NCBI GenBank assembly: GCA_944391745.1
Contig: CALXUS010000001.1
Location: 81,425 to 145,424 of the forward strand
DNA: 64,000 nt
Source: an uncultured Clostridia bacterium
GTDB lineage: Bacteria > Bacillota > Clostridia > TANB77 > CAG-508
Reading direction: 5' to 3'
Numbering within the stretch: position 1 is the stretch's first letter; every line of letters begins with the position of its first letter. Below, in pieces: positions 13,733 through 19,962 of this stretch. A program made the translations under genes and the position numbers. The notes beneath the pieces are model-generated. The model was not told where the DNA came from and ran no database searches. It saw only the letters and a program-made list of their open reading frames with translations.

Positions 13733-15055
13733 TTATTCTAAGAAACCTTTGTAATGTCTCATTACTAATTGTGATTGAAGTTGTTGTCCTAATTCTATTG
13801 CAACACCAACAACTATTAGAATTGATGTTCCACCAAATGCTGTATTAAATCCAGTAAATCTAATTAACATTGGTAATATAGCTATTACTGCTAAGAATAG
13901 ACCACCGAATAGTATTACTTTTGATAATACTGATGATAAGTAATCAGCAGTTGGTTTTCCGGCTCTAATTCCTGGTATAAATCCACCGTTTTGCTTAATA
14001 TTGTTAGCAACTTCTGCTGGATTAAATGTTGCATAAGTATAGAAATAGGTAAATCCTACAATTAACAATAAGTATACTATTGCATTTATTATTGTATATT
14101 GCCATCCAACATCTGATGATGATGTAGCAATTGAAAAATTATATAATACTTTTAAGAAACCTGTTAGTGATCCAACATCACTTACAAATAATTGGATTAT
14201 CATTGCTGGGAATGTCATGAATGATGATGCAAAAATTATTGGCATAACACTAGCCATTGCAGGTTTAATTGGAATATGTGTATTTTGAGCTCCAACCATT
14301 CTTCTTCCAACAACTTTTTTAGAATATTGTACTGGTATTCTTCTTTCAGATAGTTGTACAAATACAACTCCTATTATTAATACTAATACTCCTATTAATA
14401 TTCCTATGGCAGTTAATAGCCCTGTTGTACTAAATGCTCCATCAACTACTATATTGCTAGCTATAGCAACAACTGCACTTGGTAAAGATGATACTATACC
14501 AGCAAATATTAACATTGATATACCATTACCAATTCCTTTTGATGTGATTTTATCTCCTAACCACATTAATAATGAAGTTCCTGCCATTAATGCAACAACT
14601 ACAACAACTCCAGTAAGTATATTTTCATCAACGAATAGTCCTGAAGATCTATATGATAAATATATTCCTAGACCTTCAACTAAAGCTAGTGCTAAAGTTA
14701 TAAGTTTTGTATATCTATCAACTTTCTTTCTACCTTCTTCTCCACCTTCCATTGTTAATTTTCTAAGTGGAGGTATAATTATTCCTAATAATTGTATTAC
14801 AATTGATGCTGTAATATATGGTGTTATTGACATTGCGAAAATAGATAATCTTGAGAATGCACCACCTGAAATCATATTAATTAATCCAGTAACTGTATTT
14901 GAATATGATTCCATTGATGATTCCAATGATACTATATCAACACCAGGTACTGTTATGTAGCAACCTAATCTAAAGATTACTAACAATAATAATGTGTATA
15001 ACATTTTCTTTCTTATTTCAGGAGTTTTAAAAGCGTTTTTTATTGTCTTTAGCAA
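13733..15055 (-). CDS. secY: Preprotein translocase subunit SecY
   Basis: 440 aa, 10-TM SecY sequence. Confidence 0.95.
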   Translation of the reverse strand: MLKTIKNAFKTPEIRKKMLYTLLLLVIFRLGCYITVPGVDIVSLESSMESYSNTVTGLINMISGGAFSRLSIFAMSITPYITASIVIQLLGIIIPPLRKLTMEGGEEGRKKVDRYTKLITLALALVEGLGIYLSYRSSGLFVDENILTGVVVVVALMAGTSLLMWLGDKITSKGIGNGISMLIFAGIVSSLPSAVVAIASNIVVDGAFSTTGLLTAIGILIGVLVLIIGVVFVQLSERRIPVQYSKKVVGRRMVGAQNTHIPIKPAMASVMPIIFASSFMTFPAMIIQLFVSDVGSLTGFLKVLYNFSIATSSSDVGWQYTIINAIVYLLLIVGFTYFYTYATFNPAEVANNIKQNGGFIPGIRAGKPTADYLSSVLSKVILFGGLFLAVIAILPMLIRFTGFNTAFGGTSILIVVGVAIELGQQLQSQLVMRHYKGFLE

Positions 15056-15490
15056 CTATATCACCTCTGCCTTTCCGCCTAAAGCTTCAATTTGTTCTTT
15101 AGCAGATTTAGTGAATCTCACAGCTTTGACATTTAATTTTTTGTCAAGTTTTCCAGTTGCTATAACAACTATTCCGTCATTTTCTTTGCTTATTATTCTA
15201 TCTTTTATTAAGCTTTCAGCTGTAACATCTGTTACTGTAGATTTATTAAGCATTGTTAATGTTACTTCTGTATAATTTTTAGCAAATTTGTTTGTGAATC
15301 CTCTCTTTGGTAATCTTCTATATAATGGTGTTTGACCACCTTCAAATCCACGTCTAACTCCTCCGCCAGATCTTGCTTTTTGACCTTTATGTCCTCTACC
15401 AGATGTTTTTCCAAGTCCTGAACCGATTCCACGTCCAACTCTTGTTCTTGCTGTTTTTGCTTGTGCTGGTTTTAATTCGTCTAATTTCAT
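15056..15490 (-). CDS. rplO: 50S ribosomal protein L15
   Basis: 144 aa, Gly/Arg-rich N-terminus. Confidence 0.95.
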
Positions 15491-15610
15491 ATAGATTACA
15501 CCTCCTTAATTAATTTTTAGAGTTTCCATTCTGTAGAATATTTTACATTTTCCTAATTAATTATTCAATAAGAATTTTAATATTCCTCAGAAAATTTCAG
15601 ATATTTTTTA

Positions 15611-16099
15611 TTATTTGATATCTTCTACTTTTTTTCCTCTTTTTTTAGCTACTTGTTCGATAGTTTGCATACTCTTTAATCCTTCTATTGTTGCATATAC
15701 AACATTTCTTGGATTGTTTGTTCCTAGAACTTTAGTTCTAACATCTCTGTATCCGGCAAGTTCTAGAACTGGTCTTACACTACCTCCAGTAATAAGTCCA
15801 GTACCTTCTGCAGCTGGCTTAAGCATTACGCTTGCACTACCGAATTTTCCTATATATTCATGAGGTACTGTTGTTCCTACGATTGGAACTTCTACTAAAT
15901 TCTTCTTAGCATCTTCGATTGCTTTTTTGATAGCATCTGGAACTTCAGCTGCTTTTCCATTTCCTACGCCTACTTTTCCTTTTCCATCTCCAACAACAAC
16001 TACTGCGCTAAATCTGAAAGTTCTACCACCTTTTACAACTTTAGCAACTCTGCTGATGGCTACAACTTTTTCTTTTAATTCAGTTTCGTTTTCTTGCAC
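15611..16099 (-). CDS. rpsE: 30S ribosomal protein S5
   Basis: 162 aa. Conserved [16 protein letters not shown]. Confidence 0.95.
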
Positions 16100-16117
16100 T
16101 TGATTTTCCTCCTTCTC

Positions 16118-16477
16118 TTAAAAATTTAATCCGCCTTGTCTTGCGCTTTCAGCTAATTCTTTTACAACTCCATGATATTGATATCCACTTCTATCAAATA
16201 CAACGTCAACTATTTTCTTGTCTTTTGCTCTTTTTGCTATTAGAGCTCCAACTTCTTTAGCTGCTTCTTTATTTGCATGCTTTGTTTTTACTTCTTTGTC
16301 CATTGTTGAAGCACTTACTAAAGTATTTCCATTAACGTCATCTATAATTTGAGCATAGATATTTGTATTACTTCTATACATACATAGTCTTGGGCATTCA
16401 GGTGTTCCACTGATTTTTCTACGAACTCTTGCATGTCTTCTATCTCTTTCAAATTTTCTATCTGTTTTAGAAATCAT
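16118..16477 (-). CDS. rplR: 50S ribosomal protein L18
   Basis: 119 aa, canonical. Confidence 0.95.
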
Positions 16478-16540
16478 TGATTTTCTCCTTTCTATAATTA
16501 TTGGTATTGTAAGAAACTCAAATTAGTATATTGCTAATTT

Positions 16541-17074
16541 TTATTTCTTACCAGTTTTACCTTCCTTACGTCTAATATGTTCTTCAACATATTTGATACC
16601 TTTTCCTCTATAAACTTCTGGTGGTCTCTTGCTTCTTACAACAGCAGCTGTTTGACCAACTAGCTCTTTGCTTACACCTCTAACAATTATAGAGTTTGCA
16701 CTTGGTACATCAAATGTAATTCCTTCTGGTGCTTCCATCTCTACTGGATGTGAGTAACCTAAATTCATTACTAATTTTGTTCCTTGTTTTTGTGCTCTGT
16801 AACCTACACCATTGATTTCAAGTGCTCTTGTAAATTCTTTTGTTACACCTTCAATCATGTTGCTTATTAATGTTCTTGTTAGTCCGTGTAAGTTTCCATA
16901 TTCTTCTGATGGAATTTCTACTTTTACTTCTTTGTCTTCTACTTTTACAGTAACATTATGATTTAAGTCTCTTTCTAATGTTCCTTTTGGTCCTTTTACA
17001 GAAATGTGACTTCCATTAACTGTTACTTCAACACCATCAGGTATTGCTATAGGTTTCTTTCCTATTCTTGACAT
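16541..17074 (-). CDS. rplF: 50S ribosomal protein L6
   Basis: 177 aa, MSRIGKKPIAIP. Confidence 0.95.
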   Translation of the reverse strand: MSRIGKKPIAIPDGVEVTVNGSHISVKGPKGTLERDLNHNVTVKVEDKEVKVEIPSEEYGNLHGLTRTLISNMIEGVTKEFTRALEINGVGYRAQKQGTKLVMNLGYSHPVEMEAPEGITFDVPSANSIIVRGVSKELVGQTAAVVRSKRPPEVYRGKGIKYVEEHIRRKEGKTGKK

Positions 17075-17520
17075 TTGGATTCTCCTCCTTCTTTTAATTT
17101 TTTTGATTTTTTATTTATACGTGTATATAAAATAATGTTTAGTATTGTTGGTATTGTATATAATACCAATAATGCACATAACTCACCCTTAGCACTTTTT
17201 GGCATGCCAGTTGCTAAATTTATTATAATATTAAAGGTCCAATGTGCAAGTATTACTAATAATGCAACAAAAACTATATAAATAAAATATTTGATTTTAG
17301 TCTTCATGTTCTTTATTTTTATAGTTTTTATAATAGATTTTACTATTAGCACTAAGTTAATAAGTAGTAATACTATTCTTAAAATACCAATTATATACCA
17401 AATCCAATTTTCTGTTTCATTTATATTTGGTACTGGCTCTAGTGACTGATTTGCCGTTACCTTACTTGTTAATATTATCATTATTACTATAATCAATACT
17501 ACACTAAGTTTTTTTACCAA
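17062..17520 (-). CDS. Hypothetical 4-TM membrane protein (152 aa, TTG start) that fills an atypical 480-bp spacer between rpsH and rplF
   Basis: Long same-strand ORF in an AT-rich region, with four predicted TM helices. Ends at the rplF RBS and start. Begins at TTG. The nearby ATG is out of frame because of an A7 tract. Confidence 0.3.
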   Translation of the reverse strand: MVKKLSVVLIIVIMIILTSKVTANQSLEPVPNINETENWIWYIIGILRIVLLLINLVLIVKSIIKTIKIKNMKTKIKYFIYIVFVALLVILAHWTFNIIINLATGMPKSAKGELCALLVLYTIPTILNIILYTRINKKSKKLKEGGESKCQE

Positions 17521-17557
17521 TTTTTTTCATTATTTTATCCCACTTTAAATTTATATA

Positions 17558-17956
17558 TTACCAAACATAAGCTAAAACTTCTCCACCTAAACCTTCTTTT
17601 CTAGCTTCTTTATCTGTTTTTATTCCTTTAGATGTTGAAATTAATGCTATACCTAAACCATTTAATACTTGTGGTAATTCATCTTTGTTAACATATATTC
17701 TTAAACCTGGTTTACTAATTCTTTTTAAACCATCTATTACTCTTTTTCCGTTTTCATCGTATTTTAGAGTAATTCTTAACATTCCTTGTTTTTCATCTTT
17801 TATTTCTTCAAAAGATGCTATATATCCTTCATCAAGTAAGATTTGAGCTATAGCTCTTTTCATATTTGATGCTGGAACGTCAACTTCCTTATGTTTAGCA
17901 CTATTTGCATTTCTTATTCTTGTTAGCATATCTGCTATTGGGTCTGTTGTATTCAA
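17558..17956 (-). CDS. rpsH: 30S ribosomal protein S8
   Basis: 132 aa, canonical. Confidence 0.95.
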
Positions 17957-18123
17957 TTCTTTTCCCTCCTTTTTTTATTTTTTAATGCTTATTTGTTTAA
18001 ACTTATTTAAATTAGTATATTGCAAGGAAAGCAAGTAAAAAATTTTGAAATAATATTATTATATATTGAAAAATTTTTTACGCCGCTTGACGAAGCAAGA
18101 TGCTGATTAAAATAAGTTTAGGA

Positions 18124-18309
18124 TTACCAGCTAGCTTTCTTAACACCAGGAATTTCACCCTTATGTGCTAATTCTCTAAAGCATATACGGCAAATTCCAT
18201 ATTTTCTGATGTAAGCATGTGGTCTTCCGCAAATTTTGCATCTGTTATATTCTCTTGTCTTATATTTTTGTGGTCTAGCTTGTTTTACTTTTAAAGATTT
18301 CTTAGCCAT
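18124..18309 (-). CDS. rpsZ: 30S ribosomal protein S14, type Z (zinc-binding)
   Basis: 61 aa, [20 protein letters not shown]. Confidence 0.95.
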
Positions 18310-18338
18310 TTGCTTTTAATTTCCTCCTTCATTCAAAT

Positions 18339-18878
18339 TTATTTCTTGAATGGCATTCCAAGAAGAGTTAATAATTCTTTTGCCTCTTCATCTGTCTTAG
18401 CAGTTGTAACAAATATTATGTCCATGCCTCTAACTTTATCTACCTTATCATATTCGATTTCTGGGAATATTAATTGTTCTTTAATACCCATTGAGTAGTT
18501 TCCTCTTCCATCAAATGAATCGCTTGATACTCCTCTAAAATCTCTAACTCTAGGAAGTGCTACATTGAATAGTTTGTATGCAAAATCATACATTTTTCCT
18601 TTTCTTAATGTAACTTTAACTCCTACATTTACACCAGCTCTTAGTTTGAAAGCTGCTATTGATTTTTTTGATTTTGTTATAACTGGTTTTTGACCTGTTA
18701 TTGCCATAATATCTCTTACAGCTCCATCTAATGATTTAGGATCTTCTTTTGTATCACCTAAACCTATATTTAAAACTATTTTTTCTAATCTTGGAACTTC
18801 CATAATTGATTTATAGTTAAATTTTTTCATCATTGCTGGAATAATTTCTTTCTCATATTGTTCTCTTAAAATTTCCAT
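18339..18878 (-). CDS. rplE: 50S ribosomal protein L5
   Basis: 179 aa, canonical. Confidence 0.95.
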
Positions 18879-18905
18879 AAGTCTTAAATAGACCTCCTTT
18901 CCCTA

Positions 18906-19223
18906 CTATTTAACTTTTTTTAATTCTGCTCCGCAAGATTTGCATACACGTACTTTGCCATTTTCTGTTACTTTGTAACCTATTCTTACTGCTTTTCCGC
19001 ATTTTGGGCATACTATTGCAACATTACTTGAGTTAATAGGATGTTCTGATGCAATAATTCCTCCTTCATCTCCTGCTTTTCTTGGCTTTGTTGCTCTTTT
19101 TCTTATATTAACGTCTTTTACAACGATTCTATTTTTCTTAGGAATTACTTCAAGTATTTCTCCAGTTTTTCCTTTATCGTTTCCAGATAATACTTTTACA
19201 TTATCTCCTTTTCTTAATTTCAT
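18906..19223 (-). CDS. rplX: 50S ribosomal protein L24 (C-terminal zinc-ribbon-like CxxC...CxxC)
   Basis: The KOW motif start MKLRKGDNVKVLSG is the ATG at 19223, with RBS gaggtg upstream. Confidence 0.9.
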   Translation of the reverse strand: MKLRKGDNVKVLSGNDKGKTGEILEVIPKKNRIVVKDVNIRKRATKPRKAGDEGGIIASEHPINSSNVAIVCPKCGKAVRIGYKVTENGKVRVCKSCGAELKKVK

Positions 19224-19295
19224 GTATTTCACCTCTTTCACATTTATCATTTTTGATAATGTATTTTATTTTTGTTTGCACATTTTGGCTTGCAA

Positions 19296-19664
19296 TTATA
19301 AAACTTCTGGTGCTAGAGATAATATTTTCATGTAATCATTATCTCTTAATTCTCTTGCAACAGGTCCAAATATACGTGTTCCTCTTGGTGTTTTGTCATC
19401 TTTTATTATAACTGCTGCATTTTCATCAAATCTTACCATTGTTCCATCTGCTCTTCTTATAGGTTTCTTTGTTCTAACAACAACTGCTTTAACAACTTCA
19501 CCTTTTTTTACAACGCCACCTGGTGTTGCACTTTTAACAGAAGCAACTATTACATCACCAACTGATGCATATTTTCTATATGAACCACCTAGAGCTCTTA
19601 TAACCATTATTTCTTTTGCTCCAGTGTTATCAGCTACTTTAAGTATAGTTTGTTGCTGTACCAT
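19296..19664 (-). CDS. rplN: 50S ribosomal protein L14
   Basis: 122 aa, [18 protein letters not shown]. Confidence 0.95.
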
Positions 19665-19698
19665 AGCTTGATTCCTCCTTTTTTAATATTTTTTGCTC

Positions 19699-19962
19699 TT
19701 ATTTTATTACTGCCTTTTCAGTTATTTCAACAACTCTCCATCTTTTATCTTTAGATAAAGGTCTTGTTTCCATAACTCTAACTGTATCTCCAACTTGGCA
19801 TTTATTTTCTTCGTCATGAGCTTTTAATTTGTATGTTGATTTTTTAATCTTTCCATAAGTTTTATCCATTTTTCTTGTTTCAACAGCTACAACGACTGTT
19901 TTATCCATTTTGTCAGATACAACTTTTCCAACCATTGTTTTACGAAGATTTCTCTCTACCAT
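19699..19962 (-). CDS. rpsQ: 30S ribosomal protein S17
   Basis: 87 aa, canonical. Confidence 0.95.

Follow-up and report, generated by a model that had tools for sequence, protein, structure and literature searches.

We have analysed a 64-kb window (64,000 nucleotides of contig CALXUS010000001.1, assembly GCA_944391745.1, from an uncultured Clostridia bacterium) and found that the gap between the genes for ribosomal proteins S8 (rpsH) and L6 (rplF) in its spc operon holds a genuine protein-coding gene, which belongs to a lineage-restricted orphan family. We consider it fairly probable that this orphan gene is dispensable, that it encodes a small membrane protein of the cell envelope, and that a tract of seven A residues (A7) at its 5' end leaves it off, or reduced in expression, in the window. 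Judging from the sequence, the product is most likely a dispensable component of the envelope and not a part of the ribosome. The coordinates below are those of the window, where the operon lies on the minus strand; L-numbers denote loci or contigs of relatives, and P-numbers denote proteins.

A protein-coding gene between rpsH and rplF

The operon of the window runs in the order rplE, rpsN (18124-18309), rpsH, gap, rplF, rplR, rpsE, rplO and secY. The gap is 483 bp long (17075-17557) and has a GC content of 23%. An earlier first-pass annotation, made from the letters of this DNA, had considered a spacer of about 480 bp abnormally long, and this proved correct: across the 80 species-representative genomes whose S8 is most similar, the median length of the S8-L6 spacer is 38.5 bp. 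This spacer measures at most 60 bp in 50 of these species, 61-200 bp in 27 and more than 200 bp in 3, which leaves 77 of the 80 at or below 200 bp. The gap is spanned on the operon strand by an open reading frame (ORF) of 152 codons, as had been described, and the frame stays open up to a TAG stop codon 13 nt inside rplF. Its length, which had been called unexpected for AT-rich DNA, is indeed rarely reached by chance. When the spacer was shuffled with its dinucleotides preserved, a stop-free run of at least 150 codons occurred in 1 of 5000 shuffles, and the mean of the shuffles was 54 codons.

Relatives of the encoded protein were found among 5.8 billion proteins, 26 by search and 40 by a family profile; all of them are 122-172 amino acids (aa) long, and none carries a Pfam domain. 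An exhaustive HMMER scan of 1.84 billion representative proteins gave 35 family members. Every homologue with a readable contig sits between Ribosomal_S8 and Ribosomal_L6. The frame stays open in alleles that share 52-66% protein identity and differ at 28-50% of their DNA positions, and also in a second, tandem paralogue; insertions and deletions within it are multiples of three. The protein is under purifying selection, but weakly. Pairwise ratios of nonsynonymous to synonymous substitution rates (dN/dS, Nei-Gojobori method) were 0.30-0.64, up to about 0.65, over a dS of 0.14-0.95, compared with 0.06-0.12 in the flanking ribosomal-protein genes and 0.12-0.14 in secY. The dN of the frame (0.24-0.35) is four to five times that of SecY in the same lineages. 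The first-pass annotation had proposed a small membrane protein co-expressed with ribosomal proteins, and had pointed to the spacers of relatives and to a dN/dS below 1 as checks. Both now speak for the proposal, since homologous frames are open in the S8-L6 slot of relatives in dozens of independent assemblies with a dN/dS below 1, and a membrane product is predicted.

The gene is non-essential, as is shown by its presence in 0, 1 or 2 copies in related species. One copy is found in the window, in L090 and L091 and in L095-L097, and two tandem, mutually overlapping paralogues (160/162 aa and 153/171/122 aa) are found in L001-L008, L011 and L092-L094. L098 covers the rplF-proximal copy and part of an upstream copy. 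The distant species L012, L013 and L102 have one copy with an ATG that overlaps the rpsH stop codon, and the first of the two copies in L005 overlaps this stop codon by 11 nt (ATGTATGGTAA). We found no paralogue elsewhere in the 64-kb window. Because L010, with zero copies, retains the leader, the ATG and the last ~60 bp of the gene, it represents an internal deletion. Accordingly, of the degenerated insertion remnant that had been offered as an alternative, the remnant state holds for this one relative, but the insertion of a mobile element does not stand, as we detected neither terminal repeats nor a target duplication or transposase. The contigs that encode P0013, P0002 and P0004 are mostly shorter than 2 kb, and several loci (L090, L097, L098) begin just upstream of the gene or within it. 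Metagenome assemblies thus seem to break commonly at this locus, which would be expected where strains that occur together carry different copy numbers or alleles.

The second copy of L092 (L092-L094, 3001-3516; P0002, 171 aa) is a mosaic, in which the N-terminal half is nearly identical to the second copy of L001 and the C-terminal half resembles the window allele. It also carries an 18-residue insert, KEIIKYDINTTKIKEDKV, at the conserved K.KIKYF junction. Therefore, recombination between alleles or paralogues occurs. Family members have in common a C-terminal peptide, ...KEGGESKCQE or ...KKEENPKCQE, which is the Shine-Dalgarno (SD) and start region of rplF translated in the frame of the gene, and most of the 35 remote representatives likewise end in a peptide encoded by this region. 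Among them, a remote clade of 126-144 aa proteins beginning with MNN lacks the signal peptide and mostly ends in ...KKEENPKCQE or ...NVKNRK, again from the rplF SD/start region. One of its members, L099, was confirmed in the S8-L6 slot, and a scan of metagenome contigs with the MNN sub-alignment gave no match. Since the similarity between the window clade and the MNN clade outside the C-terminal 38 residues is weak and mostly a transmembrane (TM) pattern, deep homology of the two clades is plausible, not proven. Another remote but weak match, P0064 (E = 1.5e-4), comes from an unrelated neighbourhood of toxin-antitoxin type; we set it aside, as it is probably a false positive. In L102 (1127-1860), the ORF ends in ...NQPKCEKV, a mutated copy of the rplF-start peptide, and the next gene follows 159 bp further, which hints that the 5' end of rplF was duplicated or displaced there.

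The intact product of about 155 aa begins with a basic n-region (MKKLVKK), followed by a hydrophobic core (LSVVLIIVIMIIL) and by TSKVTA, whose V-x-A motif would be cleaved in front of NQSLEPVPNINETEN. By inspection, MKKLVKK/LSVVLIIVIMIIL/TSKVTA-N has the layout of a Sec signal peptide, with a basic n-region, an h-region and small residues at -3 and -1, and the V-x-A/G motif is kept across divergent alleles (VMA, VIA, VMG, VYA, VYG, VQG, VLA, IYA, VWA). The plain four-TM protein of the first-pass annotation therefore has to be revised: its first segment is signal-peptide-like, with an n-h-c layout and the conserved V-x-A/G, and three TM helices are left. The AlphaFold2 model (mean predicted local distance difference test score, pLDDT, 75.8; predicted template modelling score, pTM, 0.61) has helices at residues 2-24, 35-67, 72-105 and 110-145, with a core pLDDT of 86-94. 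The best-conserved stretch of the family, IPTILNIILYT.INKKSKK, lies in the region of the third TM helix and the C-terminal tail. Considering the charge pattern, in which a short acidic, proline-containing segment follows the signal peptide, the TM1-TM2 loop holds seven lysines and the C-terminal tail is basic, we infer an N-out/C-in topology from the positive-inside rule.

The family could not be assigned to a known one. There was no significant match in Pfam (best E = 0.007, far below the cut-offs; no holin match; SieB at E = 0.87) or NCBIfam, nor in PADLOC, where the best hit was a generic 2TM effector in 1 of 20 members (E = 0.017), nor in PHROGs, where the sole match to a holin profile came from 1 of 20 members (E = 0.54). 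The sequence profile against the PDB gave a best E of 0.013, which is not significant, and a Foldseek comparison of the AlphaFold2 model with the PDB gave generic helical bundles only (best E = 1.7). Across the whole window, Rfam at gathering thresholds reported only one tRNA, located elsewhere. Several specific candidates were tried and rejected. A class I holin finds no support in the holin-family search, and the neighbours are always rpsH and rplF, with no lysis cassette or endolysin. A role in anti-phage defence or superinfection exclusion was dismissed on the PADLOC and SieB values given above. An insertion sequence or miniature inverted-repeat transposable element (MITE) was dismissed because there are no terminal repeats at the gap borders, no duplication relative to short-spacer relatives and no transposase; the only inverted repeats in the gap are AT-rich internal ones. 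A ribosomal or ribosome-associated protein was rejected as there is no Pfam, NCBIfam or PDB match and the product is polytopic and hydrophobic.

In terms of expression, the minus strand showed neither a promoter-like nor a terminator-like site within 17062-17557, and the gene is for this reason most likely transcribed as part of the spc operon, by read-through from the spc promoter. The stop codon of the frame overlaps the start of rplF in every family member, and the strong SD of rplF (AGGAGGAG) falls within the last codons of the frame. Such an overlap has the classical geometry of termination-reinitiation, and translation of the gene would thus feed into rplF, ending over this SD.

The start codon and the poly-A tract

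Intact alleles read ATG-A6-TT(G/A)-GTA..., that is, MKK(L)VKK, and L092, which has ATG-A7-TAGTA, is in frame as well. The window reads ATG-A7-TTGGTA, in which the ATG is offset by +1 from the 152-codon frame. The first-pass annotation had taken the gene to be TTG-initiated; we found, however, that all intact alleles start at the ATG and that the TTG is merely their codon 4. Because the window lineage carries this one-A frameshift in the 5' poly-A tract, ORF callers mis-start the gene. They use the internal in-frame ATG (17479-17481), which yields a 139-aa product, and P0070 (139 aa) is identical to the window sequence from 17481. In the 90%-identity cluster of the window allele, six members are such 139-aa calls from the internal ATG and four are 155 aa long. 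In practical terms, this is a locus that breaks metagenome assemblies and at which gene callers mis-start at the TTG or at the internal ATG.

The ATG lying one A out of frame in a homopolymer had also been read as a hint of a slippery start, and here the hint led to a real slippage-type polymorphism. The exact A7 of the window is present in nine independent contigs (L103-L111) from different samples and at least two studies. On the same allele, A6 is present in four contigs (L112-L115) from three studies, and also in L090 and L091, at 99.5-100% identity; the sole difference between L115 and the window over 654 bp is that one A. Since the identical A7 occurs in nine independent contigs and A6 in four others, the extra A is not an assembly error. 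A6/A7 is a true on/off polymorphism, and it possibly represents phase variation. A6 and A7 were both found on the background with G at 17894, and, as judged by gene-call length (139 or 155 aa), both are inferred for three amino-acid haplotypes (E/F, E/L and K/L). Therefore, recurrent slippage or recombination is needed to place both tract states on three haplotypes.

We consider A7 to be an "off" or strongly reduced state, because ribosomes that initiate at the ATG would stop after 8 codons and neither of the other starts has a properly spaced SD: GTGGGAT lies 16 nt upstream of the TTG, which is not a usable distance, and the internal ATG lacks one altogether. The exact wild-type protein would be restored if tRNA-Lys slipped by +1 or if RNA polymerase slipped on A7; on so short a tract, both are expected to be inefficient. 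The on/off state and the sequence of the envelope protein would both vary under interaction with the environment, such as phage, host or neighbours. In a B-type allele of the two-copy haplotype, P0018 and P0015 (149 aa) are called from a GTG at codon 5, as compared with the ATG in otherwise identical 153-aa proteins, and P0018 is recorded on 6 contigs of up to 365 kb. These starts may reflect a second, independent frameshift in the start tract (ATG-A7-TAGTG) of another allele.

Alternative explanations and known systems

Several observations weigh against our reading of the locus as a gene for a dispensable envelope protein with an A7 "off" state. On the one hand, as regards the protein, a dN/dS of 0.3-0.65 indicates mild constraint, DNA of 23% GC readily yields hydrophobic, K/N-rich peptides from T-rich frames, and no significant match was obtained in Pfam, NCBIfam, PADLOC, PHROGs, PDB sequences or by Foldseek against the PDB. 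When the window and MNN clades are compared outside the C-terminal 38 residues, reversed sequences reach about the same scores as the real ones. The signal-peptide and topology calls are based on inspection and the positive-inside rule, and amino-acid variation within one allele group shows a mild enrichment at positions predicted to lie outside (11 of 31, against 4 of 32 inside). On the other hand, as regards the switch, the 139-aa forms of two of the three haplotypes are known from protein length, not DNA. The A7 contigs are nearly clonal (99.0-100%), and a single inherited frameshift together with recombination could explain them. Finally, a tract of 6-7 nt is short for classical phase variation.

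These last points lead to the strongest of the rival explanations, in which the gene is a young pseudogene in this genome, which the extra A has simply inactivated as a step towards a loss such as that in L010, with no regulated or reversible switch involved. The repeated loss of the gene in relatives fits this explanation, the near identity of the A7 contigs is consistent with one mutation that spread clonally, and slippage is rare in a tract of 6-7 nt by the standard of classical contingency tracts. However, all A7 contigs that were read have an otherwise intact frame (9 by DNA, with about 22 contigs recorded for the 139-aa forms), and A6 and A7 share the 17894-G background and, by gene-call length, all three haplotypes, so that we consider the pseudogene rather unlikely. 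The mild constraint would also agree with a spacer that is translated, where the frame is open only for ribosome coverage or hand-over to rplF (coupling, or protection from polarity or decay) and the peptide is functionless. The frame is coupled at both ends, with its stop inside rplF in all members and its ATG overlapping the rpsH stop in L005, L012, L013 and L102; omega reaches 0.64; and the remote similarity is mostly the TM pattern and the rplF-overlap region. Yet rplF has its own strong SD, the A7 lineage is widespread and viable though its ATG-initiated ribosomes stop after 8 codons, and L010 has lost the frame altogether. Because of these three facts, L6 synthesis does not depend on the gap being translated, which argues against a spacer kept open for its translation. 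In addition, omega is below 1 by a method (Nei-Gojobori) that is conservative in AT-rich DNA, and the signal-peptidase motif and positive-inside charge pattern are kept across alleles with saturated silent sites. We consider this second explanation improbable.

Far less probable still, and contradicted by the comparison with relatives, is a non-coding gap, where the long frame of an AT-rich insertion or of a mobile-element remnant would have stayed open just by chance. The low GC content and the mobile-looking hairpin repeat in neighbouring operon spacers could be taken in its favour, but that repeat is a different sequence, and terminal inverted repeats, a target-site duplication and a transposase are lacking in the gap. 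The frame is also open in the widely diverged alleles and the tandem paralogue, and its length is reached by a single shuffle in 5000. We likewise give very little credence to the idea that the entire insertion, or just its additional A, is an artefact of assembly or sequencing. Indel errors classically arise in homopolymers, and many contigs break near the locus; against this, the gene occurs in dozens of independent assemblies, the A7 is identical in nine independent contigs, and the other homopolymer runs of the 64-kb window leave their frames unbroken, 64 of them (A/T of at least 7, G/C of at least 6) lying in intact frames.

Returning to the reading of a switchable envelope-protein gene, we place it among known things, as a variant of the passenger genes of ribosomal-protein operons and of the genes turned on and off by homopolymers, and it requires no new category. 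Simple-sequence contingency genes, for example those for surface proteins under homopolymer control in Haemophilus, Neisseria, Campylobacter and Mycoplasma, are defined by frequent, reversible switching, which in our gene is a possibility. In the position of its tract and in the length polymorphism of that tract, our gene appears to resemble them: the homopolymer lies at the extreme 5' coding end, and a difference of one unit between otherwise identical alleles sets the frame. Its product is likewise predicted to be located in the envelope, fast-evolving, dispensable and variable in copy number. Unlike contingency genes, it has a tract of just 6-7 nt, lies inside an essential ribosomal-protein operon and not at a surface-antigen locus, and has no homology to known phase-variable families. 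The non-ribosomal passengers of the S10-spc-alpha cluster (secY, adk, map and infA) are universal, essential and slowly evolving, and stand at the operon end. Our gene is similarly non-ribosomal, would share a transcript with ribosomal-protein genes and, as secY does, encodes a membrane protein, but it is lineage-specific and dispensable, lies between rpsH and rplF, and overlaps rplF.

Class I holins share with the product a mature size of about 125-130 aa, three TM helices, the predicted N-out/C-in topology and a basic C-terminus. Here, however, the gene lies neither in a phage nor in a lysis-cassette context and has no endolysin next to it, and many small membrane proteins that are unrelated share the layout. 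Genes that arise de novo, or as orphans, from T-rich intergenic DNA tend to encode TM segments, as described for yeast. In agreement with such an origin, the family occupies one intergenic slot only, has no homologues elsewhere and is AT-rich and TM-rich, and short proto-ORFs that end at the same rplF-internal stop exist in the spacers of other species; in contrast to it, the family is old enough to have diverged past easy recognition and to have duplicated.

A further-reaching proposal, which we regard as tentative, is that an essential and highly transcribed ribosomal-protein operon hosts a contingency locus. The orphan gene would perhaps have been born in situ from the S8-L6 spacer, would be switched by slippage in the 5' poly-A tract and duplicated or deleted by recombination via its conserved ends, and, as a divergent cassette flanked by rpsH and rplF arms that are near-identical in different species, would be kept or exchanged. 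If true, bacteria would be expressing a variable envelope protein from the most conserved operon of the genome and using that operon as a scaffold for its recombination. Few bacterial gene arrays are as rigidly conserved as the spc operon, and most documented insertions fall between operons. The example insertions analysed by Brandis 2021 (PMC8046335) are either inter-operonic or, inside the rpoBC operon, located between rplL and rsmC, and in the literature searched we found no description of a gene between rpsH and rplF. The present gene shows that the operon tolerates accessory genes and may be exploited by them. It offers a compact natural system for the birth and decay of orphan genes and for translational coupling, and it flags an unannotated family of membrane proteins in abundant uncultured gut Clostridia.

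Feature coordinates, flanking genes and other spacer elements

Table 1. Coordinates of the gene, its predicted parts and its neighbours in the 64-kb window, with the basis of each assignment.
Feature	Coordinates	Strand	Basis
rpsH (ribosomal protein S8), upstream neighbour	17558-17956	minus	132-aa ORF; homologues in related loci with Pfam Ribosomal_S8; 97-99% identical to relatives
Leader between rpsH stop and ORF ATG, 27 nt, with weak SD-like GTGGGAT at 17537-17543	17531-17557	minus	Sequence; leader kept in L090, L095, L001 and also in the deletion remnant L010
ATG, true start codon of the membrane-protein gene	17528-17530	minus	Intact homologues all begin MKK[L/I/T]VKK here
Poly-A tract, codons 2-3; A7 in the window (frameshifted, "off"), A6 in in-frame alleles	17521-17527	minus	Comparison with L090, L091, L103-L115
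8-codon out-of-frame mini-ORF MKKIGKKT*, result of the extra A, ending at TAG 17504-17506	17504-17530	minus	Sequence
Body of the reading frame, 152 codons from in-frame TTG 17518-17520	17062-17520	minus	First in-frame start codon is TTG; stop TAG 17062-17064
Signal-peptide-like segment with a basic n-region, a core of 13 hydrophobic residues and V-T-A ahead of the predicted cleavage site	17452-17520	minus	Inspection; motif conservation
Predicted TM helix 1, residues 35-67 of the 152-aa frame	17320-17418	minus	AlphaFold2 pLDDT 86-92; hydropathy
Predicted TM helix 2, residues 72-105, preceded by lysine-rich loop KSIIKTIKIKNMKTKIKY	17206-17307	minus	AlphaFold2, hydropathy; K-rich loop and KIKYF motif conserved in the family
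Predicted TM helix 3 and basic C-terminal tail, residues 110-145	17086-17193	minus	AlphaFold2, hydropathy
Divergent core of the gene, 45-80% DNA identity to L095	17142-17461	minus	Sliding-window identity
rplF junction: SD AGGAGGAG 17082-17089, rplF ATG 17072-17074, ORF stop TAG 17062-17064	17062-17089	minus	13-nt overlap; sequence
rplF (ribosomal protein L6), downstream neighbour	16541-17074	minus	177-aa ORF; homologues in related loci with Pfam Ribosomal_L6

In comparison with L095, rpsH and rplF are 97-100% identical; identity falls abruptly in the divergent core and is back at 100% at 17101. The dS of the gene is 0.41-0.95, against 0.05-0.07 in seven flanking ribosomal-protein genes. We had considered a hypervariable cassette with alleles far older than its flanks, but this interpretation was softened by secY (13733-15055), which is similarly diverged. 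When the window was compared with L001, L095, L097, L010 and L005, secY was 84-87% identical with a dS of 0.51-0.65, and the drop started at the rplO/secY border; the ribosomal-protein genes (15056-19962) showed 97-99% DNA identity and a dS of 0.05-0.07 (0.19 for L005). Considering this dS of secY, the compared lineages are different species and the silent divergence of the gene is about that of the background. It is thus the ribosomal-protein genes that are unusually similar, and not the gene that is unusually divergent at silent sites. GC content at third codon positions (0.12-0.16) and codon choice are alike in the ribosomal-protein genes, secY and the gene; accordingly, codon bias is not an obvious cause of the similarity. 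An unusual constraint on silent sites is a possibility, as is homogenisation of the ribosomal-protein block by recombination across species.

The spacers of the operon hold further elements. A hairpin-forming repeat of about 105-130 nt (17995-18123) lies in the rpsN-rpsH spacer (17957-18123), with a partial copy (a 15-mer, 16520-16534) in the rplF-rplR spacer. Its inverted repeats are nested, with arms at 17998-18023/18095-18120 and 18035-18052/18064-18081, and its predicted RNA fold has an energy of -28.1 kcal/mol (z = -3.3) and no Rfam match. In related loci the repeat occurs at 43 places, always on the operon strand: L6-L18 (18), S14-S8 (18), L5-S14 (5), L14-L24 (1) and S8-L6 (1, in L036). 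It is present or absent between lineages whose genes are near-identical, and it looks like an element akin to repetitive extragenic palindromes (REP) or MITEs, or one acting at the RNA level, that is specific to the spacers of ribosomal-protein operons. Further along the operon there is no rpmD (L30) between rpsE and rplO, where a spacer of 120 bp (15491-15610) is found; this spacer measures 47-132 bp among relatives. In the S8-L6 slot of further species, other conserved sequences of 70-185 bp occur in L029, L030, L035, L038 and L048, in L024, L025, L046 and L047, and in L041, L052 and L056. Some of them carry inverted repeats, for example AATTAATCAAAACC...GGTTTTCATTAATT, and some carry mini-ORFs of 33-39 codons, several of which end at the same rplF-internal TAG (...KCQE). 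Inserted or structured elements seem to have a hotspot in the S8-L6 slot.

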